Shown here one piece after another: positions 5,811 through 44,321 of a stretch of DNA of 64,000 bases (position 1 is its first letter; each line of letters opens with the position of its first letter). Source of the stretch: a virus. Lineage: Duplodnaviria; Heunggongvirae; Uroviricota; Caudoviricetes. The translations under genes and the position numbers were made by a program. The DNA is taken from the IMG/VR virus record IMGVR_UViG_3300047667_001391; one strand, written 5' to 3'. The notes beneath the pieces are model-generated. The model worked only from the letters and a program-made list of their open reading frames with translations. It was not told where the DNA came from and did not search any database.

Positions 5811-8210
5811 GTGAGTAGAGAAAAACAATTAGAATTAGAAAAAGAAATGCTTTCGTTAGGTGAGGAGAAGTATAGAAATGAACTTAGTGTATCAGATGAT
5901 TTTGACTCAGTTCATATTCAGAAAATTGTAACCAAGATGATTATTCCATTTTCTCAGGTAATTAAGAAAGCTATCGATAAAGATATAGCACTAAATGGTA
6001 ATGGTACTATGCCGCCATTAAAGAGGCTAAACAACAAACATTTCTTCGTGAATGCATTATCCAAAAAAGAAATTGAATTAGGTAGTGAACGGGATACTAC
6101 AGTAACCTGTATGCAACTGTCGTTTCTTGTGGTTAGGGGTATATTTATTTCTCTAAGAGAAGGTAAACGAACAGAATCATCATGTAATCGAGAGTTAGGT
6201 AAACAAATAAATTCTAATGTAATAACTGAGGAGAAATACCCAGATGTTGATGAACTTAGGATTGGTGCTACACTCAATGACTTATTGGTGAATGCATACC
6301 CTGAGTGGTTTGATTTAGTGTGGGATAAAAAACACAAAATATACAAGAACCCATTTGATTTTATTGATTCAAAATCTAAGAAACGGGAATACATCATCAC
6401 ACCATCGGAAAAGTTTATGGACTTCTGTAGTGAGATTATAGAGGGTATTGCTGAAATTAGTGCGATCATTCATCCTATGATATATATACCCGATGATTGG
6501 TCAGAAGACGGACGTGGTGGTGGTTTTTATAGTGAACAGTTGAAGCGTAATATAATTAAAAAGAAGGATATACATTATCCATCTGGTATCAATGTCGATA
6601 TAGCTGCTGCAGTCAATTCAATTCAATCTACACCATGGAAAGTTAATCATCAGGTGTTGTATGTATTGGACATGTTGAATATCATGGAAAAACCCAGTAC
6701 GTTACCTAAAATATTCCCAGAAACAGTAGAAGAAACACCGAAGAAACCATGGGAATCTATAGATAAAGAAAATCACACCGAAGAACAGGTTATGGATGTT
6801 CGGAAATGGTGGCGTAAAGCAGCAAAATTAACTAAAGCGAGGCAAGCAAAGCGTTCACTTGACCTATCCACTAACTCGGTAATATTTCAAGCTAAAAAGT
6901 TTCAAAATGAGCTTTTTTTATACTTTCCCCATGACTTAGATTATCGTGACAGAATTTATAACAAATGTATGACTGGATTAAATACGCAAGGGTCTGATGT
7001 CCAAAAAGGTGTTTTACAATTTGCTCATGGTGAAGTACTGACAGCTGGTGGTGTCCGGTGGATGAAAATCAACATGGCTAATTTAGTTGGTCATGATAAA
7101 CTTAAGTTAGTGGAGCGGGTGGCTTGGGTTGATGACAATGAAATCTTACTGAGAACAGTTGCAACTGACCCAATAGGATGCAATATATGGCATACATGGG
7201 ACAAACCTATCCAAGGTCTAGCAAGTGCATTGGAATATATTAAATGGCTAGATAACCCACTAGAACCTGTTTTTTTGCACGTTCAATTGGATGGACTATG
7301 CAATGGGGTGCAACACCTCTCTGCTATCACTAGAGACGCTGCTGTTGCGCCACATGTTGGGTTAATACCAACCGAACAACGCGGTGATGTTTATCAATTT
7401 GTTTGTGATGCAGTAATTGAAGTAATTAAAAGTGATACTGATGGTTGGGCTGCCATGTCCAATGAGTGGATAGAGTCTGAATTATTAGATAGAGGTCTAA
7501 CTAAAACCCCAGTAATGACCCGCTCATATGGTGCTAAGCTATATGGAATTAAAGAAGGTATTCAGGATTATATCGACGAAAAAAATAAAGAAGATTGCTT
7601 TAGTGATGTGTTTAGTAGCGGCAATTGGATGGGTGAGCGTATCTGGGATGGGATGTCGGAATCACTCGCAGGTCCGATGGCGTTTATGGAATGGGTACAA
7701 AAATGTGCTGGTGTCTTAGCGAAGCATAATTTACCGATGAACTGGGTTAATCCAATCGGCGGGAAATGTTCACAGAGTCCGTTTAAGACAACATCAAAAA
7801 CCCTCAAAGTTAAAATAAATGGTAGGCGGGTTGATTATAAAATACATACCCCGACTGATAAAATTGACAAAGGCAAAGCAGAGGCATCGTCATCACCAAA
7901 CTTAATACATGGTAATGATGCAAGCCACTTATTACTTACTGTAATCAAATGTTTATCTGAAGGCATAAATAAGTTTGCTATGGTACATGACAGCTTTGGT
8001 TGCCATCCAAATTACGCAGATAAATTACTCCTATGTGCTAAAGAGGCGTGGATTGAAATATACAGTAAGGATTGGATGCACATTTGGTATGTGGGTTGGT
8101 GTGAACAAATGCAAAGGTCTGGGTTTGATGTTGACCTACTGCCGTTACCACCAGAAAAGGGCACACTCGATATAACTAATGTTATGGGTTCCGATTTCTT
8201 TTTTGTGTGA
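5811..8210 (+). CDS. single-subunit DNA-directed RNA polymerase, T7 family
   Basis: T7-RNAP-like motifs: DGLCNGVQHLSAI (T7 DGSCSGIQHFSAM), RSYGAKLYG, HDSFG (motif C), and a C-terminal ...SDFFFV (T7 ...SDFAFA). GTG start with a GGGGTGG SD. Confidence 0.9.
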   Translation: MSREKQLELEKEMLSLGEEKYRNELSVSDDFDSVHIQKIVTKMIIPFSQVIKKAIDKDIALNGNGTMPPLKRLNNKHFFVNALSKKEIELGSERDTTVTCMQLSFLVVRGIFISLREGKRTESSCNRELGKQINSNVITEEKYPDVDELRIGATLNDLLVNAYPEWFDLVWDKKHKIYKNPFDFIDSKSKKREYIITPSEKFMDFCSEIIEGIAEISAIIHPMIYIPDDWSEDGRGGGFYSEQLKRNIIKKKDIHYPSGINVDIAAAVNSIQSTPWKVNHQVLYVLDMLNIMEKPSTLPKIFPETVEETPKKPWESIDKENHTEEQVMDVRKWWRKAAKLTKARQAKRSLDLSTNSVIFQAKKFQNELFLYFPHDLDYRDRIYNKCMTGLNTQGSDVQKGVLQFAHGEVLTAGGVRWMKINMANLVGHDKLKLVERVAWVDDNEILLRTVATDPIGCNIWHTWDKPIQGLASALEYIKWLDNPLEPVFLHVQLDGLCNGVQHLSAITRDAAVAPHVGLIPTEQRGDVYQFVCDAVIEVIKSDTDGWAAMSNEWIESELLDRGLTKTPVMTRSYGAKLYGIKEGIQDYIDEKNKEDCFSDVFSSGNWMGERIWDGMSESLAGPMAFMEWVQKCAGVLAKHNLPMNWVNPIGGKCSQSPFKTTSKTLKVKINGRRVDYKIHTPTDKIDKGKAEASSSPNLIHGNDASHLLLTVIKCLSEGINKFAMVHDSFGCHPNYADKLLLCAKEAWIEIYSKDWMHIWYVGWCEQMQRSGFDVDLLPLPPEKGTLDITNVMGSDFFFV

Positions 8211-8213
8211 TGG

Positions 8214-8253
8214 TTTACTTTTACATTCAATCAGGTATCATATGCCTACTGAA
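8214..8253 (+). promoter_or_regulatory. sigma70-like promoter TTTACT-16-TATCAT followed by the conserved ACTGAA start region
   Basis: -35/-10 spacing plus ACTGAA 6 nt after the -10, as in the promoter family below. Confidence 0.4.
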
Positions 8254-8270
8254 ATTAAAGGGGTATTATT

Positions 8271-8474
8271 ATGATTACACTTGACCAATTACTTGAACTA
8301 AAAGAATCAGAATCTTGGGTGCCTGCTTGTGGTGGTACCGAAAAACAGTTTATTATTAAGGGTAGGACGGTGCAGTATATGTGGAATACATTTACTAAAG
8401 AACATACTTATTATGATGTTCTTCGTGATGTGTTTTTGGAAAATGACGACCTTAAAGAACTAGGTCTTTTGTAA
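8271..8474 (+). CDS. hypothetical protein
   Basis: 67-aa ORF with a GGGG SD. Confidence 0.5.
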   Translation: MITLDQLLELKESESWVPACGGTEKQFIIKGRTVQYMWNTFTKEHTYYDVLRDVFLENDDLKELGLL

Positions 8475-8489
8475 TTTTTAGGAGAGTAA

Positions 8490-9497
8490 ATGAGTAAATT
8501 ATTAGATCGAATGAAAAAGCTATCTACTGTAGTAGGTTCAAGTGCGTTATCTAAATCAGAATTTTTTAAATATGATGTAACTCCAACAGCCATTCCGATA
8601 TTAAATTTAGCGTTTGGTGGTTCGGTTTTTAGTGGGTTAACGGGCGGCATAACTATGTTGGCTGGTGAGTCAAGAACATTCAAAACTGGCTTATTAATTC
8701 AAATGGTTAAAGCATTTCAAGTTAAACATAAAACTGGTGTTTGTGTATTTTATGATAGTGAGTTTAGTTCTCTGGATTACTGGATTAGTGCAGGTATTGA
8801 TATGGACCGAATACTTCATACTCCAGTAGTTACTATTGATGAATTGAAACATGACATGGCCAAGTTATTGGATAGTATTGAGCCAGAAGATAAAATTATG
8901 TTTGTTTGTGATAGTATTGGTGGGCTTGCTTCCAAAAAAGAAGCCATGGATGCAGTCGAACGTGCTGACATGCCAGTTGATATGACCCGCGCCAAGACTA
9001 TGAATTCTTTGTTTCGTGTGGTTACTCCTGTATTAAATAAATTAAAAATAGATTTTGTACTGATCAACTCATTTTATGAAACAATGGATAAATACCCAAC
9101 CAGAGTTTATGCTGGTGGTAAGAAAGTGTTCCTATCCTGTGATGATGTTTTCTTTATTAGTCGCAGTAAGATTACACAAAAGGACACAAAAAAACTCGAT
9201 GGTTTTACATTTACTCTAAATGCAGATAAATCTCGTACCGTTATAGAGGGTAGTAAGTTTCCGATTGCAGTTACATTTCAAGGCGGCATTGATCGTTATT
9301 CTGGCCTATATGAATTAGCCAAAGAAGCTGGATTTATAGAAGTGTCCGGTGCTTGGGTTAAGTTAATGGACTTTGACACAAAGGTTATGGGTGGTAATGT
9401 GAGGGTTAAGGATATTAAGTCTGAATTTTATGAGGCATTAATAACTAACGATAAATTTACTGAGTTTGCATCAAAGAAATACAAACTAAATGGGTAA
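8490..9497 (+). CDS. uvsX: UvsX/RecA-family recombinase
   Basis: Co-linear with T4 UvsX: MSKLL..., a P-loop GESRTFKTG, VCVFYDSEFS, CDSIGGLASKKE, TRAKTMNSLFRVVTP and SRTV-EGSKF. Confidence 0.9.
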   Translation: MSKLLDRMKKLSTVVGSSALSKSEFFKYDVTPTAIPILNLAFGGSVFSGLTGGITMLAGESRTFKTGLLIQMVKAFQVKHKTGVCVFYDSEFSSLDYWISAGIDMDRILHTPVVTIDELKHDMAKLLDSIEPEDKIMFVCDSIGGLASKKEAMDAVERADMPVDMTRAKTMNSLFRVVTPVLNKLKIDFVLINSFYETMDKYPTRVYAGGKKVFLSCDDVFFISRSKITQKDTKKLDGFTFTLNADKSRTVIEGSKFPIAVTFQGGIDRYSGLYELAKEAGFIEVSGAWVKLMDFDTKVMGGNVRVKDIKSEFYEALITNDKFTEFASKKYKLNG

Positions 9498-10931
9498 TTG
9501 ATGAGTAGTGGAATAGCAGATGGGGAAATGGGGTCGATTGTACTCAATAATATAATTAACAACATTACATATGCCTCAAAAGTTTTACCGTACCTCAGTG
9601 CTGATTATTTTGTCGAGGAGACTGAGTGTTGTATTGCTCAAGTCTTGATCGACTATCACGCATTATATGGTAAGAGTCCAAACGTTAGAGAAATTGTGGT
9701 CGAACTTAAGGAATTACCACAGATAACCAAATTAGATAAAAATACAGTAAATGATGTACTCGGTAATGGTGCGTACATAGTAACTGATAATGAATGGTTA
9801 ACTAAGCACACCGAAAAATTTATACAACGCAGAAGGATAAGCCAAGCCTTCGAGAAAACATATGGTGATTTCGAAGCGGGTAATATTTTAGATTCGATAG
9901 CAAATGTATTCCAAGAAGCGTTATCATTTTCTTTTGATAATTCTATTGGTCATAACTTTATATTAGACAGTCATCTGCGATACGATTTATATTGTAGCGA
10001 AGAAGAAAGACTTAGCTTCTATCTTGAAATGTTAGATTTGGTCACAGATGGTGGTGTAGGTAAAGGTACATTGAATGTATTTCTTGCTGGTACTGGTGTA
10101 GGTAAATCTTTGCTGATGTGCTCTATTGCCGCAGCTCAAGCTATGGCAGGTAAAAAAGTACTCTATATATCATTAGAGATGGCGGAGCTGAAATTAGCAG
10201 AAAGATTAGAGTCTAATCTAATGGACGTACCATTAAACTCCTTGAAACATATGTCAAAAGAAGATTTTACTCTTCGTCAAAATATATACATAAAGAAAAT
10301 GGAAAGTTTGGGTGGGAATATAATATTCAAACAATATCCAACGAGTTCTGCCCACGCTGGTCATTTTAGAAATTTACTTATTGAATGTAAAAATAAATTA
10401 GATTTAGAATTTGATGTTATTTATATCGACTATCTAAATATTTGTGCAACTAATCGCGGTACTAACAGTGATAATTCTTACACTAAAGTTAAGAATATTG
10501 CAGAAGAAGTTAGGGCATTAGCTGTTGAATTTCAGGTACCTATTATTTCCGCAACACAAACAAATCGAAGTGGTCAGGAATCAAGCGATCTTAGTTTTGA
10601 GGATGTATCTGAATCACATGGCTTATCTGCTACTGTTGATTTATTATTTGGTCTAATGTCAAATGAAGAATGGGAGAAAACTAATAAAATAATGGTTGGT
10701 CAAATAAAAAATCGATACGGTGACCCTAACTATTATAAGAAGTTCATGATTGGTGTAGAGCGTAGTAAAATGCGTCTATATGATTTAAAACGGGAAGCAT
10801 CTAATGAAGTCAATTCTGGGCAATCGAGCAAAACAAATAGCACAGAAGGTGCGGATTTTGGTGCAATCGATTTGACAGTGCTTGGTGCATCTAGAGCTAA
10901 TTCATTAAACTTTGATAAATTAAAAACATGA
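9498..10931 (+). CDS. replicative DNA helicase, T4 gp41 / DnaB family
   Basis: GTLNVFLAGTGVGKS Walker A and YISLEMAE. The overall order matches T4 gp41, including the C-terminal IKNRYGD. Confidence 0.9.
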   Translation: MMSSGIADGEMGSIVLNNIINNITYASKVLPYLSADYFVEETECCIAQVLIDYHALYGKSPNVREIVVELKELPQITKLDKNTVNDVLGNGAYIVTDNEWLTKHTEKFIQRRRISQAFEKTYGDFEAGNILDSIANVFQEALSFSFDNSIGHNFILDSHLRYDLYCSEEERLSFYLEMLDLVTDGGVGKGTLNVFLAGTGVGKSLLMCSIAAAQAMAGKKVLYISLEMAELKLAERLESNLMDVPLNSLKHMSKEDFTLRQNIYIKKMESLGGNIIFKQYPTSSAHAGHFRNLLIECKNKLDLEFDVIYIDYLNICATNRGTNSDNSYTKVKNIAEEVRALAVEFQVPIISATQTNRSGQESSDLSFEDVSESHGLSATVDLLFGLMSNEEWEKTNKIMVGQIKNRYGDPNYYKKFMIGVERSKMRLYDLKREASNEVNSGQSSKTNSTEGADFGAIDLTVLGASRANSLNFDKLKT

Positions 10932-11191
10932 GAAATATGAGAAAAATTAAAATATATACTGCTGTTTGGTGCCCGTCATGTGTGATTTTACATGAATGGG
11001 TATCTAAAAAAATATTAGAAGGTCTGTCTATTGATGTTGAATTTGTTGATGTTGATGTAGAATTTCAAGAATTGATAGACCAAGAAATTAAAATAAAAAC
11101 CCTACCATCATCATTATATAATGGTCTATTGTATACTGGGAGTGATAAAATCAAGGAAATTATATTGAAAGCTGAAGTTAAAAATGATTGA
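10928..11191 (+). CDS. glutaredoxin/NrdH-like redoxin
   Basis: N-terminal beta-strand followed by a CPSC (CxxC) active site. The gene is immediately upstream of, and overlapping, nrdA. Confidence 0.6.
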   Translation: MRNMRKIKIYTAVWCPSCVILHEWVSKKILEGLSIDVEFVDVDVEFQELIDQEIKIKTLPSSLYNGLLYTGSDKIKEIILKAEVKND

Positions 11192-13058
11192 ATCATATTT
11201 AGGAATTGATATTGATTTAGCACGTGACGCTCTTTTACCTGAGCAAGGTAAGGTATTATTAACAAAAAAAGGGTTCTATAAAATGAACCACGAGACTAGT
11301 CCCCAACATGGTTTTGCTCGTGCAGCAACATCATATTGTTTCGGTGATTATGAACTAGCACAGCGTATATATGACGCTGCTAGTCTTGGATATTTCACTT
11401 TCGCTAGTCCGGTACTCAGTAACGCACAAGAAGTTAATTGGCCTTATATGAATGAGGAGAATGATTTTGAAAAGTTGGGGTTATGGTTAGAACAAAAAGT
11501 TAAACCACGTGGCATGCCAATTTCCTGTTTTCTTTCGTACATCCCTGACACTAAAGAAGGTTTAGTTAATGCAAACACGGAAACTAGATGGCTATCTATG
11601 CTCGGTGGTGGTATTGGAATATATCCATCTAATCGCTCACCTGACGCTAAATCTACTGGTGTTATGTCTCATCTTCGTGGTTATGATGCAGATGCATTAT
11701 CATATAAACAAACAGAAGCTCGTCGAGGTTCTATTGCAGCCTATATGAATATTGATCACCCTGAAATATTAACCTTTATTGACATGAGAAATCCAGTTGG
11801 TGGTGACTCAAACACAAAATGTTTTAATATTAATAATGGCGTAAATATCACTGATGATTTTATGTATAAAGTCATTGGCGGTGAAAAATATGAGCTGGTG
11901 GACCCCAAGCATGGCGGTACTGGTCGTATGTTAGATGCCCGTGAAGTTTGGGAAAAATTAATGGAAGTTCGTTTTGAGACTGGCGAACCTTATTTATTAT
12001 ATATTGATACCGTCAATCGAAACATACCCAAGCAAGTACGCAACCCGATGTATAATATAGTCCAGAGCAACCTATGTTCAGAAATTACGTTAATGACGTC
12101 AGAAAAAAGAACAGCTGTGTGTTGCCTATCCTCTCTTAATTTAGAAAAATATGACGAATGGAAGGATATAGGTTTAGTTGGCGATTTAATTCGTATGCTT
12201 GATAATGTATTGGAATATTTCATCAGGTTGGCACCACCAGAATTAAGCCGAGCTGTTTATTCAGCAAAAAAAGAACGTGCTTTAGGGTTGGGGACTTTAG
12301 GATGGCATAGTTATTTGCAATCCAAATCAATCCCATTTGAATCCGGTGGATTTAATAGTGCCATACAACACACTAATTTGATTTATAATAACATCAAAAA
12401 TCAGGCAGAAACCACATCAAAGTGTTTAGGTATAGAAAGGGGTGAATCTCCTGATTGCAGAGGTTCTGGGTTTAGAAATAGCCATCTTATGGCATTAGCA
12501 CCGAACGCGTCTAGCTCTCAAATGATTAACGTATCCCCTTCGGTTGAGCCATGGTCTGCTAATGCATTTGTTAGCAAAGGAAGAGCTGGTTTGTTTTTGA
12601 TTAAAAACAAACACTTAGATAAAATATTAACTCAATATGCAGCAGACATGAACAGCAATGATTATGACGAACAATGGTTGGCTGACATATGGAAAGATAT
12701 TATTGATAAAAACGGTAGTGTCCAACATCTAAATTTCTTATCTGAGCATGACAAGAAAGTCTTTAAAACATTCACTGAGATTGATCAAATGTGGGTGATT
12801 GAGCAGGCTGAGCACCGAACACCAAAGATTTGTCAGTCATCATCACTGAATATTTCGGTAGCCAAGGGAGTAACGCTGCAGGAAATGTCAGATATCCATA
12901 TGGCGGCGTGGTGGAAGGGAGTAAAGTCTTTGTATTACTGCAGAGCAGAGGCTGCAGTCCAAGCTAAAGTCTCTGATGGTGGAATCAAGGCACCGCTAAA
13001 TGCGGTTGCAGTTGAAACTGAAAATAAATATGAAGAATGTAGAAGCTGTGAAGGGTAA
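11184..13058 (+). CDS. nrdA: ribonucleotide reductase class Ia large subunit
   Basis: 624 aa with an ATP-cone-less N-terminus, the NLCSEI active-site region and a C-terminal CxxC tail (CRSCEG). Confidence 0.9.
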   Translation: MIESYLGIDIDLARDALLPEQGKVLLTKKGFYKMNHETSPQHGFARAATSYCFGDYELAQRIYDAASLGYFTFASPVLSNAQEVNWPYMNEENDFEKLGLWLEQKVKPRGMPISCFLSYIPDTKEGLVNANTETRWLSMLGGGIGIYPSNRSPDAKSTGVMSHLRGYDADALSYKQTEARRGSIAAYMNIDHPEILTFIDMRNPVGGDSNTKCFNINNGVNITDDFMYKVIGGEKYELVDPKHGGTGRMLDAREVWEKLMEVRFETGEPYLLYIDTVNRNIPKQVRNPMYNIVQSNLCSEITLMTSEKRTAVCCLSSLNLEKYDEWKDIGLVGDLIRMLDNVLEYFIRLAPPELSRAVYSAKKERALGLGTLGWHSYLQSKSIPFESGGFNSAIQHTNLIYNNIKNQAETTSKCLGIERGESPDCRGSGFRNSHLMALAPNASSSQMINVSPSVEPWSANAFVSKGRAGLFLIKNKHLDKILTQYAADMNSNDYDEQWLADIWKDIIDKNGSVQHLNFLSEHDKKVFKTFTEIDQMWVIEQAEHRTPKICQSSSLNISVAKGVTLQEMSDIHMAAWWKGVKSLYYCRAEAAVQAKVSDGGIKAPLNAVAVETENKYEECRSCEG

Positions 13059-13063
13059 AAAAT

Positions 13064-14071
13064 ATGTCAATATTTGAGAAAACAGAAACGTATCGACCAT
13101 TTAAATATCCATGGGCGATGGAGGCTACACAGGAACAGTCAATTGATTTGTATTGGGATGTTCACCAATTGGAATTTAGTGATGATATTCGTCAGTTTCA
13201 TGCTGATGGTGGGTTAGATACTACGAACGTACCTGCCAAATTTACTAAAAACTTACTAAATAAAACTCTGGCTATATTTACACAAATGGACGTAGCGGCT
13301 GGTGCTTTATATTGTAAGTTATTACCACATGTAGGTAATAACGAAATTCGTAATATGTGGATGAGTTTTGCATCAAAAGAATCGGTACATCAACGATCAT
13401 ATGCGCTGGGTGTTGAAGTATTGGATATGCCCGAAAGCACTTGGGGTGAATTTATGGAATATAAGGAAATGTCCGAAAAGATAGATATTATGGTGGATTT
13501 AGATGGCTTAGATCTATCAAAACCATTAGATTTCGGCAAAGCTTTGGCGTTACTATTATTATGTGAGGGTGTTGCCTTGTTTGGTGCATTCGCTGCCATG
13601 CTGAACCTTAAAAGGTTTGGTTTAATGATGGGACTTAATCAGGTAAATGAATATTCACTTAAAGATGAAAATGAGCACGTAAAGAATAACATGCGAGTTC
13701 TCTCTGAAGTGCGATTAGAATTAAGTCCAGATGAAAATCTAGAACTGGACTCATTCATTAATAAGTTAATAGTTAAAATGAGAAATGCTGAACATCGATA
13801 TATCGAGTTGATATTTGATATGGGTCCAGTTGAGGACATGACTGAACAGGACATGAAAGATTATATTGATTATTTATGTGACCTGCGGTTATCTCAACTT
13901 AGGCTCGGTAAGATCTTCAATACTTCTAATAATCCATTAGTTTGGATGGATTATGTTTTAGGTGGAAAACAACACACTAATTTCTTTGAGGCGAGGGTGG
14001 GTGAATATTCCCATTCCGGTCTCATTGGTGGGGTTGATTATAGTAAGTACGTAAAACAAAATACTTTTTAG
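13064..14071 (+). CDS. nrdB: ribonucleotide reductase small subunit
   Basis: 335 aa with ferritin-like di-iron/tyrosyl radical motifs (E..H pairs). It directly follows nrdA. Confidence 0.9.
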   Translation: MSIFEKTETYRPFKYPWAMEATQEQSIDLYWDVHQLEFSDDIRQFHADGGLDTTNVPAKFTKNLLNKTLAIFTQMDVAAGALYCKLLPHVGNNEIRNMWMSFASKESVHQRSYALGVEVLDMPESTWGEFMEYKEMSEKIDIMVDLDGLDLSKPLDFGKALALLLLCEGVALFGAFAAMLNLKRFGLMMGLNQVNEYSLKDENEHVKNNMRVLSEVRLELSPDENLELDSFINKLIVKMRNAEHRYIELIFDMGPVEDMTEQDMKDYIDYLCDLRLSQLRLGKIFNTSNNPLVWMDYVLGGKQHTNFFEARVGEYSHSGLIGGVDYSKYVKQNTF

Positions 14072-15088: not shown

Positions 15089-15129
15089 AAGGCAATGATG
15101 CCAAAACTACACTCATTTTGGAGTTTTTA

Positions 15130-17238: not shown

Positions 17239-17280
17239 AAATGCCACAACTCATGCAACTGGGTTGTGGCATTTGTTATT
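17239..17280 (+). terminator. rho-independent terminator: 12-bp stem (aaatgccacaac / gttgtggcattt), then a T-rich tail
   Basis: Perfect inverted repeat read from the sequence. Confidence 0.65.
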
Positions 17281-17332
17281 ACTCGTATTGCTAAGAAAAT
17301 TTAAGCTTTACGTACAAACTGAGGAGAATAAA

Positions 17333-17776
17333 TTGAGTGAACTAAGTAAAAAAGATTTAAAAAGATGGAAAGCCATTGTCAAGGAAGGTGTTTTCTTCAT
17401 GGTGGGTATTGAAATTAAAAATAAGAGAAAGGCAGCATTTATTAATATATGCCGCTTTGCTAACGGTAAAGCTGTGACCGATAAACATATGAGATATCAA
17501 GGTCATTTAGTTGGCCAATTATTTCTTGGTGAGTTTATGAAATGTAATGCTGATAAATGCTTACAAGATGCATCAGAAGAAGTATTGGATTCCCTAATAA
17601 GCGGAAAGCTATATAAATATATATCTAATTTATTTATTCATGCATTTTATAAACTAGATAAGCAAGCTATTGATGCTACTATAACCAATTGGAGTTCATG
17701 GAAGGGTGTCATTGATAGTGTCGCTGATTCACAAAAAGTTGAGCCGCAACCAGAACTAGTTCCGCAGGGGGAGTAA
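17333..17776 (+). CDS. hypothetical protein (TTG start)
   Basis: The track ORF's ATG (17264) lies inside the upstream terminator hairpin. An in-frame TTG at 17333 has a GAGGAG SD 6 nt upstream. Confidence 0.4.
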   Translation: MSELSKKDLKRWKAIVKEGVFFMVGIEIKNKRKAAFINICRFANGKAVTDKHMRYQGHLVGQLFLGEFMKCNADKCLQDASEEVLDSLISGKLYKYISNLFIHAFYKLDKQAIDATITNWSSWKGVIDSVADSQKVEPQPELVPQGE

Positions 17777-18836: not shown

Positions 18837-18852
18837 CAGGAGAAATAGACTA

Positions 18853-35665: not shown

Positions 35666-35694
35666 TTTACATTTATTTTTAATTCATATATAAT
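35666..35694 (+). promoter_or_regulatory. sigma70-like promoter TTTACA-17-TATAAT
   Basis: Perfect consensus boxes read from the sequence. Confidence 0.6.
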
Positions 35695-35718: not shown

Positions 35719-36339
35719 ATGATTGGTATTTATTTGAGTGGGTACCAGTCATATAAATTATTTATGGCGATTAACCTTCACTTCAATCAAGAAAAATATG
35801 ATATTTTTGAAATGAAGGGGAGGACCAAAATTAATGAAAATTCATTTACTAAAAGGAACGATAAGCATTTTTTTACTACTCTAGGGAGAGAGTATAAACG
35901 CGGTGACCTTGGTGATTATTATATGGCTAATATTATGGCTGGGTGTACTCATATATCACAGTACACTGATTATAATCTACGGGAATGGAAATCAAAGATG
36001 CATAGGATAGACTACATCTTTGAGGAGGATCTCAAAAAGTTAAGTTTTCTTGTTGTGAAACATGAAATAAAATTTAATGATTTATTTTCTTCGATTACAG
36101 GGAACTTACCTCTGGTCGTGCAACTTTTGAACGGCGGCCACATTAACTTAGAGACTATATGTATAATCGATAAGATTTTGGGAGGTGGTATATTATTAAG
36201 ATTTGACGAACAAATCAGAGATAAATTTGTATGGCCGAAATTAAGGATGAGGATACATAAATATTCTCGCTGGCTTAATAAATTGGAATTATCCACTTTA
36301 AGAAAAACATTAATAAATTACACAAAACAGGAAAAATAA
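35719..36339 (+). CDS. hypothetical protein
   Basis: 206-aa ORF with an AGGAGAG SD. Confidence 0.55.
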   Translation: MIGIYLSGYQSYKLFMAINLHFNQEKYDIFEMKGRTKINENSFTKRNDKHFFTTLGREYKRGDLGDYYMANIMAGCTHISQYTDYNLREWKSKMHRIDYIFEEDLKKLSFLVVKHEIKFNDLFSSITGNLPLVVQLLNGGHINLETICIIDKILGGGILLRFDEQIRDKFVWPKLRMRIHKYSRWLNKLELSTLRKTLINYTKQEK

Positions 36340-36343
36340 ATAC

Positions 36344-37513
36344 ATGACATCATTTGCATCACTTAAAAACAATAAATCAAATGCACTAGCTGGACTAAGA
36401 GAGAAAGTTCAGGCATCCGCTGCAGGAGAAGGGGGGACACCAAAAGACCCAAGAAAGTTTAAATTGACGTGGGACAAAAAAACACATATCGGCAGTGCAA
36501 TAATTCGGTTTTTACCGTTCGGTAATGGCGATAGATTGCCGTGGGCTGAATGGGCTGAATTTTCTTTTAAAGGTAAGGGCGGTAACTACTGGGAACGCTC
36601 TCGAAAAACTATCGGAGAGGATGACCCAGTGGCTGCACTAAACAAAGCGCAATGGGCGCGTGGCCAAGGCGAAGACGAAAATCAAGTTAAAAACCGTGGT
36701 CGTAGATTACGATATATATCAAATATCGTAGTGATTAGTGACCCAGAACACCCAGAAAATAACGGCCAGAATTTTCTATTTGAGTATGGACCAGCAATAC
36801 ATAAAATGATTATTTCTGCTATGGTACCTGAGTACGCTGACCAACAACCAGTAGAAGTTTATGATATGTGGAACGGTGCTACTTTCCGTTTACGCTCGAA
36901 AGACAAGGGTGGAAATGTAAATTACGACAGCTCTGCTTTTGATGCACCGTCGTGTCTACATGCAGATGACAGTATACTAGAAAGATTTTATAATGGTATG
37001 ATAGATCTATCTGAGTTTGAATCAGCAGATTTATGTAAAACATATGATGAATTAGACAAGTCGATGCGCAAAGTGTTGGGTGGTGCTTATTGTGCCAGTA
37101 TACTGGGTGAAACTATACAGCATGGTGGTGCTGACCCTGATAGCAATAATCCATTTAGTGAGATGCAGGGTAACCAAGGTAACCAAGGTAACCAAGGTAA
37201 CCAAGGCATTCAATTCGAGAAACACCAAGCTCAACAACCACAAGGTAACCAAGGTAATGCAGACCCTTTCGCGGATCAAGGTCAACAGCCACCTTTAGGG
37301 GATGATCCGTTTGCTAACCAACAACCACAAGGTAACCAAGGTAATGCAGACCCGTTTGCAAATCAGACCCAACAGAAGGCAGCAGGAGATGATCCGTTTG
37401 CTAACCAAAATCAGGGGCAGAGCAGCCAAGGACAGAGCAATGCAGATCCGTTTGCAAGCCAATCAAGTGACTCAAACTCAGATGACCCGTTTGCTGATAT
37501 GGATATGGGGTAA
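36344..37513 (+). CDS. ssDNA-binding protein (T4 gp32-like) with a repetitive acidic C-terminal tail
   Basis: AIIRFLPF and NIVVISDPEHPENNGQNFLFEYG match the gp32 core ([31 protein letters not shown]). The C-terminus carries 5x GNQ/GNQGN and 6x DPFA(N/D/S)Q repeats. Confidence 0.8.
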   Translation: MTSFASLKNNKSNALAGLREKVQASAAGEGGTPKDPRKFKLTWDKKTHIGSAIIRFLPFGNGDRLPWAEWAEFSFKGKGGNYWERSRKTIGEDDPVAALNKAQWARGQGEDENQVKNRGRRLRYISNIVVISDPEHPENNGQNFLFEYGPAIHKMIISAMVPEYADQQPVEVYDMWNGATFRLRSKDKGGNVNYDSSAFDAPSCLHADDSILERFYNGMIDLSEFESADLCKTYDELDKSMRKVLGGAYCASILGETIQHGGADPDSNNPFSEMQGNQGNQGNQGNQGIQFEKHQAQQPQGNQGNADPFADQGQQPPLGDDPFANQQPQGNQGNADPFANQTQQKAAGDDPFANQNQGQSSQGQSNADPFASQSSDSNSDDPFADMDMG

Positions 37514-37778: not shown

Positions 37779-37952
37779 ATGAAGAAAATAATAAAAGTAA
37801 AACGTCATATTAAAAGTGATGGTTCGGTTGTCGAGTCATATAACCGAACTATAGACACGAATGATGTAAAATCGCTAAGTTTCTCTATCAAGAAGAAAAG
37901 ATTAGAAGAAGAACAAGCAAGTATATTAAATTCATTCAGAGAGGAGGATTAA
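37779..37952 (+). CDS. small hypothetical basic protein (57 aa)
   Basis: Fills the gap between the terminator and rnh. Its stop overlaps the rnh ATG (TAATG). Confidence 0.35.
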   Translation: MKKIIKVKRHIKSDGSVVESYNRTIDTNDVKSLSFSIKKKRLEEEQASILNSFREED

Positions 37953-38887
37953 TGGCAATATATCTAGATTTTTCGGGTAGTATGTTTGCTGCATTGCATG
38001 TGGACTTAAAGGCTGGAGAGAAACCTGACCCTGATTATTTACGGTATCTAATATTAAATAATATTAGATTCTATAATAAAATGTTTAGTAGTGAGTTTGG
38101 GTTGATGCATATATGCCTAGATTCTAGTTCATGGCGCGATGGTGTATTCCCGCAGTATAAATATGAAAGACGGGCGAACAGAGCAGAAGATAATAATGAT
38201 TGGGAACAAATATTTGACCACATCTATACAATACAATCTGAAATTAAAGAACATTTACCATTTCCGGTAATACAGGCTGACGGCGCAGAAGCAGATGATA
38301 TAATTGGTGTCCTATGTAGTTCCAACACAGAGCCTAGCATTTTAGTTTCTAATGATAAAGATTTCGCTGCTTTACTCAAACACAAGCACGTTAAGCGTTA
38401 TAGGCCCATAGTTAAAGGTGTAGAAAAAACCCCGATAACTGACCCAGAAAGGTTCGAGTTTGACTTGATACTCAGTGGTGATAAATCTGATGGAATTCCA
38501 TCTGTACGCTGCCATGACGATTTTTATGTAGAACAACACAGGGCTAAGTTAGCCAATGAAGCAATAGTGCGAGCGCCACCTGTCAGTGCAAAATTAAAAA
38601 ACTCTTGCTATGAAGCTTTTAATAAAAGCGAAGAAGAACTGGAAATAGTAATGGGTAAGTTTTTATATAAAAATTATTTAAGGAACCAATTATTAATATC
38701 ATTGGATTATGTCCCAGATGATGTTAAGGTTGCTATCCATAAATCAGTGCGGGACGCGTCACCAGCAAAAATAATGAAGACTTTAAATTTTCTTATGCAA
38801 AATCGTATGCAACGCCTTGTTGCTGAAATTAAAGACTTTACTCCAAACCAAACCCCACGGAAAGTAACATCCGTGTTTGATATATAA
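37952..38887 (+). CDS. rnh: RNase H / 5'-3' flap endonuclease (T4 rnh-like, FEN family)
   Basis: IYLDFSGSMFAAL, ADDIIGVL, SNDKDFAAL and LSGDKSDGIPSV parallel T4 RNase H motifs. Confidence 0.85.
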   Translation: MAIYLDFSGSMFAALHVDLKAGEKPDPDYLRYLILNNIRFYNKMFSSEFGLMHICLDSSSWRDGVFPQYKYERRANRAEDNNDWEQIFDHIYTIQSEIKEHLPFPVIQADGAEADDIIGVLCSSNTEPSILVSNDKDFAALLKHKHVKRYRPIVKGVEKTPITDPERFEFDLILSGDKSDGIPSVRCHDDFYVEQHRAKLANEAIVRAPPVSAKLKNSCYEAFNKSEEELEIVMGKFLYKNYLRNQLLISLDYVPDDVKVAIHKSVRDASPAKIMKTLNFLMQNRMQRLVAEIKDFTPNQTPRKVTSVFDI

Positions 38888-38896
38888 GGATTTGTT

Positions 38897-39601
38897 ATGA
38901 AAATCTCAGATGAGACTATAGTAATTTTAAAAAACCTTGCGACTTTTAATAATCATCTCGTCGTTAAGGCGGGTAATGTTATCAGTACAGTGAATGAAAA
39001 GAAAAGCACATTAATTAAAATTGTTGTGCCAGAAGAATTTCCAATAGAATTTGCACTGCATGATTTATCTGGATTACTGAAGACGATTACATTGTTTGAA
39101 GATCCCGATTTTGTTTTTGGTGATAATTCAATAGTAATTAGTGATTCCAGTGGGACAACCCAAGAATATTATTACTCGGACAAAGATAAACTCATCTGGG
39201 ATGAGCGAGATATTACTTTCCCTGAGTGTGATATCTCGGTAACAATTACATGTGATGTTTTAAAGAAAGTCATTAAAGCTGCTGGTATAAATGGGTTTGA
39301 AGATATTGCTATTGTCGGCGAAGACGGTAAAGTATTCTTGCGTACATTAGATAAAGAAAAAGCGACGGGCGATAACTTAACTAAAAGTAAGCGCACGTTT
39401 AGTGTATTGATTGGTGAAGAGGATAAAGGTGAATTTACTGTATTCCTCAAGCACATGAAGAAGGGTGGCAATAAGCTATCGTTTCTGCCGTTAGATTATG
39501 AACTTTCTATTTCTAATAAAAAAATAGTAAGGTTTGTATCTAACGTAGAACAATATTCAATAAGCTACATTATGGGAATAGAAGCAGATTCTGTGATTTA
39601 A
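38897..39601 (+). CDS. sliding clamp (T4 gp45-like)
   Basis: MKISDETIVILKNLATFNNHLVVKAGN compares with T4 gp45 MKLSKDTTALLKNFATINSGIMLKSGQ. The length (234 aa) fits. Confidence 0.85.
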   Translation: MKISDETIVILKNLATFNNHLVVKAGNVISTVNEKKSTLIKIVVPEEFPIEFALHDLSGLLKTITLFEDPDFVFGDNSIVISDSSGTTQEYYYSDKDKLIWDERDITFPECDISVTITCDVLKKVIKAAGINGFEDIAIVGEDGKVFLRTLDKEKATGDNLTKSKRTFSVLIGEEDKGEFTVFLKHMKKGGNKLSFLPLDYELSISNKKIVRFVSNVEQYSISYIMGIEADSVI

Positions 39602-40657: not shown

Positions 40658-41230
40658 ATGAATTTAATAGGACTATGTGGAAGAGCTGGGAGCGGTAAAG
40701 ATTTTTTGGCTGATAAATTAGTCAGAGATTATGGGTATACTAAGATAGCATTTGGCACGGAGCTAAAGGTTATTGCAAATTCAATTTACCCGTGGGTGGA
40801 TTTGGATTATTTGCATGGCGAGAAAGAGGTGCCCATAAACCATTCAGAGAATCACCTAAAAAAGACACCAAGGGATATATGGTTACATTTAAATAAACTT
40901 AGGGAGATGGATAATAATGTATTTACGAGGGGCACAAAACTAAAGATAGAAGCACTTATTGCGGCTGAAAAAAATATTGTAGTTACTGATATAAGAAAAC
41001 AAAACGAACTTGATTTGTTGCGTAACTTAAAGTTTATTACCATTAAAATAAAAAGTCACATACATGATATACATAAAATTGAATCTGAAAATAGACTAGA
41101 TTTATTTAAATGTGATTATGGTTTCTTTAATCAAAAACACGGTGGGTTAGAAAAATGGGTCAATGCATTTAAATCTATATGTTTAAATGAGGCAATCAAA
41201 AACTTTAATTCGATAACTCATGGCACTTGA
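40658..41230 (+). CDS. deoxynucleoside monophosphate kinase (T4 gp1-like)
   Basis: LIGLCGRAGSGKDFLADKL compares with T4 dNMP kinase LIFLSGVKRSGKDTTADFI. Confidence 0.7.
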   Translation: MNLIGLCGRAGSGKDFLADKLVRDYGYTKIAFGTELKVIANSIYPWVDLDYLHGEKEVPINHSENHLKKTPRDIWLHLNKLREMDNNVFTRGTKLKIEALIAAEKNIVVTDIRKQNELDLLRNLKFITIKIKSHIHDIHKIESENRLDLFKCDYGFFNQKHGGLEKWVNAFKSICLNEAIKNFNSITHGT

Positions 41231-42761: not shown

Positions 42762-42823
42762 TTTGATTTAATCGTAGAGGTGAGTTATTCTCGCCTCCAC
42801 AATCAATAAAGAGTCAAAATATT

Positions 42824-43111
42824 ATGCCACAAGTTAACAATTATAATTATGGTGTATGTGATACTAATGAAGTATTTATACAAACAGAGCCGCGTCAATT
42901 GGATTCCAATAAAGGTAAAGTCTATCTCCGGAAATGTGATTTAGTTGCACTAATTCAGCTACTAGAAGACGATGAGGCGGGGGACACTATGGGTAATCTA
43001 TCAGTATCAATATTACAAAAAGAGCGCATAGCAGAATTAGAACGTAAAGTTGCCCGATTACAAAGAGCAAAGGCAGCGTTTAATGCTCACAAAAATAGCG
43101 GAGGGTGGTAG
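42824..43111 (+). CDS. hypothetical protein
   Basis: 95-aa ORF. Confidence 0.5.
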   Translation: MPQVNNYNYGVCDTNEVFIQTEPRQLDSNKGKVYLRKCDLVALIQLLEDDEAGDTMGNLSVSILQKERIAELERKVARLQRAKAAFNAHKNSGGW

Positions 43112-43608
43112 TTATGTTAAGTTTTTTTAAGAAAATTAGTGGATTGGATTCAATAAAAGGTCATGTATTTTTGGTGGGGGATATATACCAAAAAAAGAAT
43201 TATGATGAATGGCAATTAAATAATGGCCCAAAAGTGACCATAGTGGATATTAGTAGTAGGCGTGATAGGCTGAAATACAAAGAGCATTTTTCTTCGGTTG
43301 TTAGGGAGTGCAGTTATGTACGGTTTTTATCTAAGTATAATTTAGTACCAACACAAATAACACAAATAACCCCTGACCCATATTCAGTACACCCAATTAT
43401 AGTATGCAAGGAAAATGATGAGACGAACCAAAATAGCACGACGGTTGAGGTTGGCGAGGCGGTTAAGGTGGATGAGAAAGTAAAGCCAGTCGGTCCCCCA
43501 AATGAAAGATTTAGTCTTTGGTTTACAGGCAGCGAAAATTTTCCATTATTAATTAGTTGGGGTATAGTTACAATTTTATTAATTTGCATTTTAAGTGTGG
43601 TTGTATGA
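43105..43608 (+). CDS. hypothetical protein with a C-terminal TM anchor
   Basis: 167-aa ORF. Confidence 0.5.
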   Translation: MVVMLSFFKKISGLDSIKGHVFLVGDIYQKKNYDEWQLNNGPKVTIVDISSRRDRLKYKEHFSSVVRECSYVRFLSKYNLVPTQITQITPDPYSVHPIIVCKENDETNQNSTTVEVGEAVKVDEKVKPVGPPNERFSLWFTGSENFPLLISWGIVTILLICILSVVV

Positions 43609-43889
43609 ATGAATCTATTTTACTTGTAATGAAGTGGATTAAAGACCGAAAATCCGTAAGTCGTGAAGAATTAAAAGCTAATATGGATAGGGTTAATCTA
43701 AATTATAGTAATGTTGACATCGAACATAACGATATTATTAGATCTGAATATAAAGCTGCTTATTATTCATTGTTGTGTGCCTGTTATGCTCACGAAACAA
43801 CACATTTTAATAGCGCGACTAGATGGGTTAATGTGTACTTTAGTTTGAGTAATGAAGATTGCAATGATTACTTAGCGGAGCTAAATTAA
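43605..43889 (+). CDS. hypothetical protein
   Basis: ATG overlapping the upstream stop (ATGA). Confidence 0.45.
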   Translation: MNESILLVMKWIKDRKSVSREELKANMDRVNLNYSNVDIEHNDIIRSEYKAAYYSLLCACYAHETTHFNSATRWVNVYFSLSNEDCNDYLAELN

Positions 43890-44321
43890 ATGTATAATTT
43901 TGAAGACTTGATTTCTGAGATTACTGCGGATAGTAAAATCGATCAAACTAACATAGAAAGTGAAATTGTTAGATGTACTAGCCTTATTGCAAAGTATTTA
44001 CGAATACATCGAAAATACAAAGAGGGGCTGATACAAATGTGGGCCAAGAGAGATGCTACCACATTAGAAAAACAAGAGTATTATGCCGGACGGGCATTAG
44101 ATTATGTCTACAAAGAAAAACCTTTTAATTTAGAAGTCAAAAACGCTGTTGAAATGAAACGCTGGATTGACGGTGATTTAGATTTACTTAATATGAATAA
44201 AGTGATATTATCTGTCGAAGATCAAATGGAAAAGGTTGAGATGATGCTAGAACAACTCAAGTATCGCCCCAATCATATCCAAACAATACTACAAATTAGA
44301 ATGTTTGAATCGGGTGCCTAA
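43890..44321 (+). CDS. uvsY: UvsY-like recombination mediator
   Basis: Co-linear with T4 UvsY: ...YYAGR... ends in RMFESGA, compared with T4 ...YYSGR... ending in RAFEAGK. Confidence 0.65.
   Translation: MYNFEDLISEITADSKIDQTNIESEIVRCTSLIAKYLRIHRKYKEGLIQMWAKRDATTLEKQEYYAGRALDYVYKEKPFNLEVKNAVEMKRWIDGDLDLLNMNKVILSVEDQMEKVEMMLEQLKYRPNHIQTILQIRMFESGA

Follow-up and report, generated by a model that had tools for sequence, protein, structure and literature searches.

The DNA analysed here raises the question of how a T7-type RNA polymerase fits into a T4-like replication and recombination module, and which genes such an enzyme would transcribe. The window (the whole stretch of 64,000 nucleotides of viral DNA that was analysed) appears to represent about 60 kb of an early/middle arm devoted to replication and nucleotide metabolism.

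The polymerase gene and the T4-type replication arm

The RNA polymerase (RNAP) gene heads the replication arm and lies directly upstream of UvsX. The features of this arm and its left flank are as follows:

2045..2878, - strand: canonical thymidylate synthase ThyA (NF002497, 460.7 bits against a cutoff of 327; PF00303)
4079..4507, no strand: divergent, GC-rich non-coding region with a 21-bp inverted repeat, separating the minus-strand ThyA/HNH cluster from the RNAP arm
5563..5591, + strand: sigma70-like promoter TTTACT-N17-TAAGAT upstream of the RNAP gene (pattern scan)
5811..8210, + strand: T7-family single-subunit RNAP, 799 aa (PF00940, phrog_414, motifs aligned to T7 RNAP)
8490..9497, + strand: UvsX-like recombinase (phrog_97, E 7e-68; 44% identity to the henriette homologue)
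9498..10931, + strand: gp41-type replicative helicase, DnaB_C (PF03796, E 1.7e-21; 56% identity to henriette)
11184..14071, + strand: NrdA and NrdB ribonucleotide reductase (PF02867, PF00268)
17264..17776, + strand: conserved protein of unknown function, encoded 5' of gp47 where T4 has gene 55, not gp55-like (henriette homologue, E 4e-13)
17781..21011, + strand: gp47 (SbcD-like) and gp46 (SbcC-like) recombination nuclease (PF00149, PF02463; 43-46% identity to henriette)
30688..32371, + strand: gp44 and gp62 clamp loader (PF21328 Gp44_lid, PF16790, phrog_225)
33051..35660, + strand: gp43 family-B DNA polymerase (PF00136, PF03104)
35719..37513, + strand: gp59 helicase loader and gp32 SSB (PF08993, PF08994, PF08804)
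37952..39601, + strand: T4-type RNase H and gp45 sliding clamp (PF09293, PF09116, phrog_223)
40658..41230, + strand: dNMP kinase (phrog_139, E 4.9e-31)
41220-42761, + strand: UvsW helicase (PF21241 UvsW_N)
43890-44321, + strand: UvsY mediator (phrog_231, E 3.6e-31)
48798..49718, + strand: predicted primase of AEP/PrimPol fold, in place of gp61 (phrog_9765, E 4e-46; structure model)
49748..51043, + strand: Dda-like helicase (phrog_325, E 3e-95)
51408..52064, + strand: dCMP deaminase (phrog_174, E 2.5e-41)

The RNAP matches PF00940 with an E-value of 1.4e-77 (261.9 bits; cutoff 22), and phrog_414 spans its residues 4-798 (E 5e-164), a full-length match. In the alignment with residues 260-882 of T7 RNAP, the motifs LDGLCNGVQH, RGLTKTPVMTRSYGA, VHDSFG, LIHGNDASH and SDFFFV fall into register; DGLCNGVQH, the second and third motifs and the C-terminal SDFFFV are conserved. 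The catalytic residues matched are T7 D537 (motif A), K631/Y639 (motif B), D812 (motif C), H784 and the F-x-F-x foot. Judged by its sequence, the window RNAP is a catalytically intact T7-family enzyme, and the first-pass annotation, which had called it a clear member of that family, is confirmed by both profile matches and the catalytic motifs. Its identity to any GenBank phage RNAP is below 30%. The T7 base-contact residues R746, N748, R756 and Q758 are replaced in the alignment by T, K, V and Y, respectively, so that the similarity to the T3 promoter core is uninformative.

The constituents of a T4-type replisome (gp43, gp45, gp44/62, gp41, gp59, gp32 and RNase H) are all present in the window, and the call is based on family-specific Pfam models (Gp44_lid, Phage_clamp_A, T4_Gp59_N/C, gp32, RNaseH_C and gp45-slide_C). 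The gp43 protein is 54-55% identical to those of the henriette group and 38% identical to those of T4-like cyanophages. The near-complete T4-type replisome and recombination set with NrdAB that had been proposed is thus borne out by Pfam and PHROGs matches. ThyA, dCMP deaminase and Dda had been counted in the same set within 5811-44321; all three are present, and all lie outside that interval. By synteny with L045, the minus-strand ThyA/HNH cluster would be located upstream of a terminase arm.

The primase protein contains a DxD motif (LLILDIDD). Its AF2 model has a pLDDT of 88, and the best Foldseek match is 6zp9_A, the AEP domain of cyanophage S-2L PrimPol (E 2.4e-5). The Pfam search gave no match for it, nor did tblastn against T4-like phages; its homologues among phage records are in henriette-group phages, with one weak match (26% identity) in Phage C48C1. 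No gp61 (DnaG/TOPRIM-type) primase was found in the window, where the AEP/PrimPol-fold protein is the sole candidate. On the structure model, an AEP PrimPol replaces gp61 in this lineage. The earlier statement that a gp61-type primase is missing is literally correct, but the window does encode a predicted primase of another type.

Relatives and authenticity of the mosaic

The exact window RNAP protein is present in a JGI contig of 87 kb, and contigs of a separate assembly (Logan) match the window at 100% identity. The order RNAP-UvsX-gp41-NrdA is kept on independent contigs of 101,308, 106,815 and 60,991 bp, and the RNAP-UvsX-gp41 junction is conserved although the RNAPs of these relatives are only 47-52% identical. 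These observations bear on whether the combination could be artefactual, through chimeric assembly or because a T4-like genome recently acquired the RNAP gene of a podovirus by horizontal transfer. The top BLAST matches of the window RNAP, which are podoviruses, would fit such an origin. It is nevertheless almost certainly wrong: independent assemblies are identical, three distinct relatives share the junction, the window-clade RNAPs form their own clade with 100% bootstrap, and the GC content of the RNAP gene is unremarkable. The data do not support the label "chimeric", taken as a recent insertion. On sequence grounds, the combination of a T7-family RNAP with a T4-type replisome is a real mosaic. 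It is not unprecedented: it had been described as unusual, but the Vibrio phages henriette 12B8, 2.058.O, 3.058.O and V6Aob already have it.

The relatives' contigs or genomes are about 100-115 kb. The 101- and 107-kb contigs encode TerL proteins 50-55% identical to that of henriette 12B8, followed on the opposite strand by portal, S78 protease, HK97 capsid, tail tube and tape measure genes. Judging from these relatives, the window phage probably has a long, non-contractile tail. No nucleotide match to the window was found in 50,697 phage records, and the nearest isolates have homologues for only 24 of the 95 window ORFs, at 23-56% amino-acid identity; both results support the earlier proposal of a distinct lineage. 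As part of the overall explanation given below, the window would probably come from an uncultured marine phage belonging to an unclassified lineage with these four cultured Vibrio phages.

Promoters and the likely division of transcription

The strict sigma70 pattern (TTGACA/TTTACA-N16-18-TATAAT) places 11 of 32 + strand sites in intergenic DNA, which makes up 8.9% of the sequence, compared with 1 of 26 on the - strand (binomial 6e-5, Fisher 0.004). This enrichment agrees with the earlier view that the promoters are sigma70-like. These strict sites are located 24-57 nt 5' of start codons. The sigma70-like promoters fall into two classes:

35666..35694, + strand: class I promoter (sigma70-like only), an example (pattern scan)
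4119, 16569, 21021, 44652, 52072, 59494: other class I promoters (pattern scan)
57312..57392, + strand: composite terminator and class II promoter cassette (repeat families D8, D9, D15 and D19)
8214-8255, 23673-23715, 24204-24246, 24703-24745, 26610-26652, 29283-29324, 54815-54856, 59056-59097, 62252-62293: further class II promoters

The ten class II promoters have about 45 nt in common, including TACCyyACTGAAG 3' of the -10, which makes the earlier claim that contiguous conserved blocks are absent inaccurate. This block always occurs with -35/-10 elements, and a PWM scan found no copy without them in the window. A dyad is centred on the -10 (75.7% of cells paired, versus 26-43% when slid), and its arms can form hairpins of up to 16-17 bp. 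PeSL-type cassettes, in which an intrinsic terminator stem-loop is followed by a sigma70-type promoter, occur at 26550-26652, 57312-57392 and 59025-59097 (families D8, D9 and D19). In T4-like phages, PeSLs are composite terminator/early-promoter cassettes (PMC4122927). The 107-kb relative has at least 13 cassette copies, and the relatives carry their own genome-specific block at the same place after the -10. Their RNAP genes are likewise preceded by each genome's own standard sigma70-type cassette.

A gp55-type late sigma factor was not detected by PHROGs on syntenic ORFs, by phmmer with T4 gp55 as query against all window ORFs and the complete henriette genome, or by hhalign, searches of limited sensitivity. 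The protein at 17264-17776 does not resemble gp55 (hhalign probability 0.1% against T4 gp55). No RNAP-specific promoter motif was found in the window, in 17 kb of the late arm of each of two relatives or by cross-genome comparison, and the searches of the window and these late arms gave no repeated motif of about 20 bp independent of host elements. For the 107-kb relative, the strict sigma70 pattern gives 10 sites between early/middle genes but none in 2.4 kb of intergenic DNA within the late arm. The terminase operon of the 101-kb relative does have sigma70-like sites upstream of it, so the host polymerase could also reach late genes. Moreover, one relative encodes its own sigma70-family protein, and transcription control in the lineage is thus not uniform.

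The explanation that we consider probable is that the host polymerase serves the window's arm and the phage polymerase serves the structural arm, within a stable three-module lineage. Throughout the clade, the RNAP is co-inherited with the UvsX-gp41 block; sigma70-type promoters recur all along the arm, several as composite terminator/promoter elements. The lineage would stably join a T4-type replisome and recombination set, HK97-type capsid and non-contractile-tail genes on the opposite strand, and a T7-family RNAP. Host RNA polymerase would express the window's arm, including the phage polymerase gene, and the phage polymerase would then take over the structural arm beyond the window, filling the role of T4 gp55/gp33/gp45. 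At the dyad-symmetric class II promoters, a phage regulator or an RNA hairpin may modulate host-polymerase transcription. Late genes as the targets of the phage RNAP are our best guess from sequence data, and the support is indirect: the lack of a detectable gp55, a late arm without sigma70 cassettes in the 107-kb relative, and an RNAP gene behind a sigma70-like promoter. The missing RNAP-specific promoter motif, the sites upstream of the terminase operon in the 101-kb relative and the sigma70-family protein of one relative speak against this explanation.

Other roles for the polymerase can be weighed against the same data. The virion RNAP of phage N4 uses DNA-hairpin promoters, and the phage RNAP might also transcribe the window's replication arm, in T7 style, from dual-use or DNA-hairpin promoters overlapping the class II cassettes. 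Its gene heads the arm like gene 1 in T7, and both the block right after the -10, with its genome-specific counterparts in relatives, and the hairpin-forming arms would suit such promoters. This seems unlikely, however, given that the block is always accompanied by -35/-10, in the window and at all six exact search-pattern matches in the 107-kb relative. Conservation there extends to the spacer, which gives the entire cassette the look of a duplicated unit. In addition, the T7 promoter contacts are replaced in the window RNAP, and covariation in the dyad is weak, the observed score being reached by 43 of 500 shuffles. In what we regard as a long shot, the class II cassettes would be bifunctional and the T7-type enzyme would replace the gp55/gp33/gp45 late system. 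The host sigma70 polymerase would use the ~45-nt element first and the phage RNAP would use it afterwards, recognizing either the genome-specific block after the -10 or, by analogy with N4, an extruded DNA hairpin. If so, a T4-type replisome arm could pass from host to phage transcription with no need for separate promoters.

The RNAP might instead mainly serve replication by supplying the T4-type replisome with primers or with R-loops at origins, as T7 RNAP does at the T7 primary origin and transcripts do at T4 oriF/oriG. This would explain the place of its gene beside UvsX and gp41, an adjacency that is conserved, and it accords with the lack of a gp61-type primase and with the structured, repeat-rich non-coding DNA just upstream. 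We find it very doubtful, because the AEP PrimPol is available for priming, the henriette group has its RNAP gene elsewhere, in a block that diverges from the replication arm, and no origin was identified.

T4 is the textbook phage that reprograms the host RNA polymerase, and T7 the one that brings its own. A lineage with a near-complete set of T4 replisome and recombination proteins and a T7-type polymerase, apparently without the T4 late sigma, is a natural experiment on whether T4-style replication needs replication-coupled late transcription. As cultured members exist (henriette, 2.058.O and V6Aob), the question is directly testable. The RNAPs of this lineage, with <30% identity to any characterised enzyme, form a divergent single-subunit pool that may serve as orthogonal expression tools.

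Comparison with known systems

The nearest system comprises the unclassified Caudoviricetes henriette 12B8 (NC_021073), 2.058.O/3.058.O (MG592662/MG592672) and V6Aob (PV454620). They share with the window the replisome genes and their order, an AEP primase encoded between UvsY and Dda, PhoH/PIN, gp47/46, UvsW and a T7-family RNAP. Their genomes are the same three-part mosaic, in which such an RNAP is combined with a T4-type replisome and with structural genes of HK97/long-tail type, the last matched by the late arm and TerL (50-55% identity) of the window-clade relatives. No paper describing this mosaic in the four phages was found in the literature. The RNAP is unannotated in most of their records. 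On the other hand, henriette homologues exist for only 24 of the 95 window ORFs, and the RNAPs of the two groups are 25% identical, each scoring higher against podovirus RNAPs. The window RNAP gene lies on the replication strand beside uvsX, whereas in henriette it belongs to a block oriented divergently to the replication arm; in V6Aob it is upstream of the terminase operon and co-oriented with it. An exclusive grouping of the two sets of RNAPs has 18% bootstrap in an NJ tree, and one or two acquisitions both fit.

T4-like phages (Straboviridae, Kyanoviridae) share gp43, gp45, gp44/62, gp41, gp59, gp32, RNase H, UvsX/Y/W, gp46/47 and Dda with the window, as well as PeSL-like terminator/early-promoter cassettes (PMC4122927). 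Local T4 gene order is retained in uvsX-41, 47-46, 44-62-43, 59/32 and uvsW-uvsY. Unlike them, the window has a predicted AEP PrimPol instead of gp61, its own RNA polymerase, no detectable gp55, and canonical ThyA with no hydroxymethylase. T4-type head and contractile-tail genes are absent from the window, and its relatives have HK97 capsid, S78 protease, tail tube and tape measure genes.

T7-like phages (Autographiviridae) resemble the window in their single-subunit RNAP with all catalytic motifs, encoded behind a host-type promoter and ahead of DNA-metabolism genes. Their podovirus genomes are about 40 kb and encode a T7-type Pol A, whereas the window has a family-B polymerase, clamp and clamp loader, and its relatives' structural genes are of HK97/long-tail type on the opposite strand. 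No repeated phage-promoter motif was found, and the specificity-loop contact residues differ. Membership in Autographiviridae was rejected on the basis of the family-B polymerase, the T4-type accessory proteins and related contigs of 101-110 kb. The Xp10-like siphoviruses of Xanthomonas have a long tail, HK97-type structural genes and a T7-family RNAP, and use both host and phage polymerases. Xp10 combines these with a T7-like (Pol A) replication module in a genome of about 44 kb, whereas the window has a T4-type replisome and related contigs of about 100 kb.

Gene content of the window

The window is AT-rich (GC ~35%) without a compositional break. Nearly all ORFs from 4.5 kb to the window end lie on the plus strand, and a short cluster of minus-strand ORFs occupies 922-4078. 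Profile matches bore out the gene list of the first-pass annotation, namely a T7-family single-subunit RNA polymerase (RNAP) together with T4-type replication/recombination genes, NrdAB, ThyA and dCMP deaminase; this combination is real and far above chance. The assigned genes, besides the RNAP and a primase candidate described below, are as follows.

2045-2878, minus strand: ThyA, canonical thymidylate synthase (exceeds the NCBIfam equivalog cutoff)
8490-9497, plus strand: UvsX
9498-10931, plus strand: gp41-type helicase
11184-14071, plus strand: NrdA/NrdB
15118-16560: PhoH/PIN
17781-21011, plus strand: gp47/gp46
23182-23670: gp30.3
30688-32371, plus strand: gp44/gp62
32368-32997: MazG
33051-35660, plus strand: gp43
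35719-37513, plus strand: gp59/gp32
37952-38887, plus strand: RNase H
38897-39601, plus strand: gp45
40658-41230, plus strand: dNMP kinase
41220-42761, plus strand: UvsW
43890-44321, plus strand: UvsY
46000-47298: CCA-adding enzyme (tRNA nucleotidyltransferase)
49748-51043, plus strand: Dda
51408-52064, plus strand: dCMP deaminase

The gene set had been placed at 5811-44321; the identities hold, but ThyA, Dda and dCMP deaminase fall outside this range. Among the ORFs scanned, ThyA is the sole representative of its fold, which leaves no candidate for a hydroxymethylase, in agreement with the reported absence of dCMP hydroxymethylase.

The ORF at 5811-8210 (+), encoding 799 aa, matches PF00940 (E 1.4e-77) and, over its full length, phrog_414 (E 5e-164). 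Residues 260-882 of T7 RNAP are alignable with it, and catalytic motifs A (LDGLCNGVQH), B (RGLTKTPVMTRSYGA) and C (VHDSFG) are kept, as are the H784 region and the C-terminal SDFFFV, all of which substantiates the T7-family assignment. The promoter-reading residues of the T7 specificity loop (R746, N748, R756 and Q758) are T, K, V and Y in the window RNAP, so its promoter specificity is not transferable from T7 or T3. Its identity is below 30% to every RNAP in 50,697 phage records, among which podoviruses score best.

The absence of a gp61-type primase was upheld, but a primase does not appear to be lacking, since a candidate lies at 48798-49718 (+), between UvsY and Dda. It matches phrog_9765 (E 4e-46), has no Pfam match even at E = 1, contains the DxD motif LLILDIDD and, by tblastn against phage records, matches only phages of the henriette group (the cultured, unclassified Vibrio phages henriette 12B8, 2.058.O, 3.058.O and V6Aob) and, weakly (26% identity), Phage C48C1. 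The sole significant PDB neighbour of a structure model built from 20 homologues (pLDDT 88) was the archaeo-eukaryotic primase (AEP) domain of cyanophage S-2L PrimPol (E 2.4e-5), followed below significance by the LigD polymerase domain, RepB and ASFV PrimPol. So gp61 appears to have been replaced by a primase-polymerase of predicted archaeo-eukaryotic fold.

Several other genes were recorded. The CCA-adding enzyme is encoded although no tRNA gene was found in the 64-kb window; relatives have tRNAs upstream of the terminase. A NAD-salvage pair, PRPP synthetase and nicotinamide phosphoribosyltransferase, is located at 59799-62241. Eight tandem paralogues of ~115 aa each (52149-54799, period ~345 bp) share 61-87% nucleotide identity, with conserved ribosome-binding and start regions and no Pfam match, and an adjacent paralogue pair lies at 27400-28605 (27434-27710 vs 27878-28154, 73% identical). 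The 668-aa protein encoded at 54882-56888 (DUF8224; phrog_1735, E 4e-257) shares ~49% identity with counterparts in many phages of ~135-150 kb that infect Klebsiella, Serratia, Salmonella and Acinetobacter, and several records carry the putative label 'DNA-directed RNA polymerase' for its homologues.

Related phages and the origin of the gene combination

Queried at the nucleotide level, phage records gave no match to the RNAP gene or to 25 kb of the window, and the phage is unclassified, in line with the proposed distinct lineage. At the protein level, gp43 is 54-55% identical to its counterparts in the four henriette-group phages and only 38% to those of T4-like cyanophages. The henriette 12B8 genome (NC_021073, 107 kb) carries the same replisome genes in identical order and has homologues for 24 of the 95 window ORFs (23-56% identity). 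Its opposite strand bears an HK97-type capsid and long-tail genes. Its 745-aa 'hypothetical protein' is an RNAP homologue (E 8e-50); the homologue is likewise labelled hypothetical in 2.058.O and 3.058.O, and RNA polymerase in V6Aob. Thus, the combination had rightly been taken to mark a distinct lineage, but it is not unique: the layout is already present in sequenced Vibrio phages, essentially unremarked there. We found no paper describing it, and henriette is mentioned in passing only. In the Nahant-collection paper, whose scope includes 2.058.O-type phages, N4-like phages are the only ones for which RNA polymerase is mentioned, and a 2025 survey of T7-like RNAP promoters covers the T7, phiKMV, KP34 and Syn5 classes only.

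The exact window RNAP is present in a large protein collection (JGI, contig of 87,005 bp), alongside 26 cluster relatives that are 37-55% identical to it; contigs carrying some of these measure 101,308, 110,372 and 114,070 bp. The order RNAP-UvsX-gp41-NrdA is kept on JBFPEE010000142.1 (the 101-kb relative), VTLG01001719.1 and Ga0068473_1157259 (the 107-kb relative), and is continued by NrdB and PhoH on the latter two. On the 101-kb and 107-kb relatives, a large terminase 50-55% identical to that of henriette is followed by portal, S78 protease, HK97 capsid, connectors, tail tube and tape measure, and this arm lies on the strand opposite the replication arm. With the junction order kept on three contigs and the structural arm shared, the RNAP/T4-replisome mosaic is thus a stable trait of a family-level lineage. 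'Chimeric' in the sense of an artefact or a recent insertion does not apply: an assembly artefact is ruled out by a separate assembly, two Logan contigs of which match the window at 100% identity, and by the gene order repeated on three relatives, and a recent RNAP insertion by the conservation of that order. Another related contig, L045, was considered as the same phage and rejected; it is a relative from the same study series (67% nucleotide identity over 525 bp).

In neighbour-joining (NJ) trees, the window-clade and henriette-clade RNAPs are each monophyletic with 100% bootstrap, and they join exclusively in just 18% of replicates. For both the window and the henriette RNAP, podovirus RNAPs outscore the other member of the pair (311 vs 182 bits; 263 vs 182 bits). 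The gene also differs in location: it adjoins uvsX in the window, and henriette-group phages have it in a block that diverges from the replication arm. The RNAP may have entered the lineage once or twice.

The relatives have further features of their own. The non-coding DNA ahead of the terminase (0.9-1.3 kb) in henriette (92413-93703) and V6Aob (11669-12531) includes blocks with 78-86% identity between the two phages, compared with 72-74% for flanking coding DNA. It may represent a structured RNA or an inserted element; henriette has a duplicated terminase start. By eye from the translation, large ORFs at loci L017 and L024 of Ga0068473_1157259 resemble a thymine-hypermodification pyrophosphorylase fused to a P-loop kinase, where the window has canonical ThyA, and a second capsid-fold gene lies ahead of the terminase of this contig.

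Sigma70-like promoters, cassettes and non-coding repeats

Strict sigma70-like sites were defined by at most one mismatch to TTGACA/TTTACA, at most one to TATAAT, and a spacing of 16-18 nt. Eleven of the 32 plus-strand sites fall in the 8.9% intergenic sequence, 24-57 nt ahead of a start codon, compared with one of 26 on the minus strand (binomial 6e-5, Fisher 0.004), which confirms that the promoters are sigma70-like. A generic promoter scanner saw no excess overall, as AT-rich DNA would lead one to expect. The k-mers enriched in the window were promoter and terminator words and nothing else, and the signal of an approximate 18-mer match search was swamped by AT-rich sequence.

The promoters had been described as lacking any longer conserved block, which proved incorrect: TACCyyACTGAAG follows the -10 in ten promoters (class II; 8214, 23673, 24204, 24703, 26610, 29283, 54815, 57351, 59056 and 62252). 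The block ACCTCACTAAAG resembles the T3 promoter core and was hence tested as a possible phage-polymerase promoter; this likeness was rejected as evidence, as the contact residues differ and the block never occurs apart from -35/-10. A position weight matrix of the block found the ten sites only, with -35/-10 present each time. In the 107-kb relative, the cassette aaaaGCTTTACT-tctcgtaaaataagag-TATAAT-GGTTGTTATAGGGT occurs in at least 13 copies and -35/-10 accompanies every exact match to its downstream part, and the 101-kb relative has a third cassette type with an extended -10. That class II sites serve host and phage polymerases alike finds no positive support in these data, and the simplest reading of the sequences is that they would be duplicated sigma70-type cassettes. 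A near-identical intrinsic terminator precedes three of them (26550, 57312 and 59025), which are composite cassettes of the kind known as PeSLs in T4-like phages (PMC4122927; PMC2839356).

The block also supplies the right half of an imperfect inverted repeat whose centre is the -10 hexamer and whose stems reach 16-17 bp at most (at 29283, -25.5 kcal/mol). In five in-register sites, 75.7% of cells are paired, and sliding the partner lowers this to 26-43%. The covariation signal is weak: both sides changed in three pairs, and the score was attained in 43 of 500 shuffles. RNAalifold gave no consensus on all ten sites, because the two class II subfamilies are out of register, and no Rfam family was found in the window. 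The dyad, AGGTA-N4-TACCT, may serve a dimeric regulator as operator or, in read-through RNA, fold into a hairpin.

Other repeats were observed outside these cassettes. About eleven tandem copies of GTATGGTCCG occupy 3-112, followed by three 40-bp repeats (266-409); a Logan contig of the same phage terminates inside the 10-bp array, which could be an assembly breakpoint, genome end or origin. Downstream of the sigma70-like site at 4119, GC-rich non-coding DNA at 4225-4500 contains a 21-bp perfect inverted repeat (CTATATGGACGTCCAGCTGG...), with RNA fold z-scores of -5.0 (plus strand) and -4.2 (minus strand) and no Rfam family; it could form a long structured leader to gene 4508-5056 and the RNAP. 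Between these two genes, TTATACGCGGGTTTGCG occurs twice as a direct repeat and once inverted (5057-5140), making a 20-bp stem followed by a T-run. In henriette (95840-98275), four copies of a 15-nt motif, GGGGCACGTTGTCCC / aacgGGGCACGTTGTCCC, lie ~40 nt upstream of small plus-strand genes; henriette has no other repeated intergenic motif that is GC-rich, and this one is a candidate site of regulation.

Proposed division of transcription between host and phage polymerases

The RNAP gene is placed behind a sigma70-like site at 5563, and its expression would be of the early or middle type. Searches for gp55 were negative: two ORFs upstream of gp47, the position of gene 55 in T4, had no PHROGs match, a T4 gp55 query found nothing among all window ORFs and the complete henriette genome, and the conserved ORF 17264-17776 gave an hhalign probability of 0.1% against gp55. 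In the 107-kb relative, early/middle intergenic DNA has ten strict sigma70 sites, and 2.4 kb of intergenic DNA from the late arm has none. The 101-kb relative has four such sites upstream of the terminase-to-tail operon and none within it. By synteny with L045, the window minus-strand cluster (Zn-ribbon protein, HNH) lies ~3 kb upstream of a terminase operon in the same orientation. The probable start of the late arm is just beyond the left end of the window, with the two arms diverging at 4079-4507.

Taken together, the early-type RNAP placement, the failure to find gp55, the distribution of sigma70 sites and the L045 synteny indirectly favour a division in which, most likely, the host polymerase would transcribe the window arm and the phage polymerase the structural arm. 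However, no repeated motif was found in the late arms of the relatives, nor one common to them and window non-coding DNA, and the cross-genome late-arm search yielded 13/15 matches, only chance level. Also against this division, one relative, Ga0068473_1157259, encodes its own 302-aa sigma70-family protein (Sigma70_r2 + r4) in the early arm (L037, 2614-3522, minus strand); this gene was not found in the window, the complete henriette genome, the first 50 kb of V6Aob or parts of two related contigs. With identity, lineage and mechanism combined, we regard the overall explanation as somewhat better than an even bet, an estimate resting mostly on identity and lineage. Assignment of one arm to the host polymerase and the other to a phage polymerase has analogues in T7, phiKMV and Xp10.
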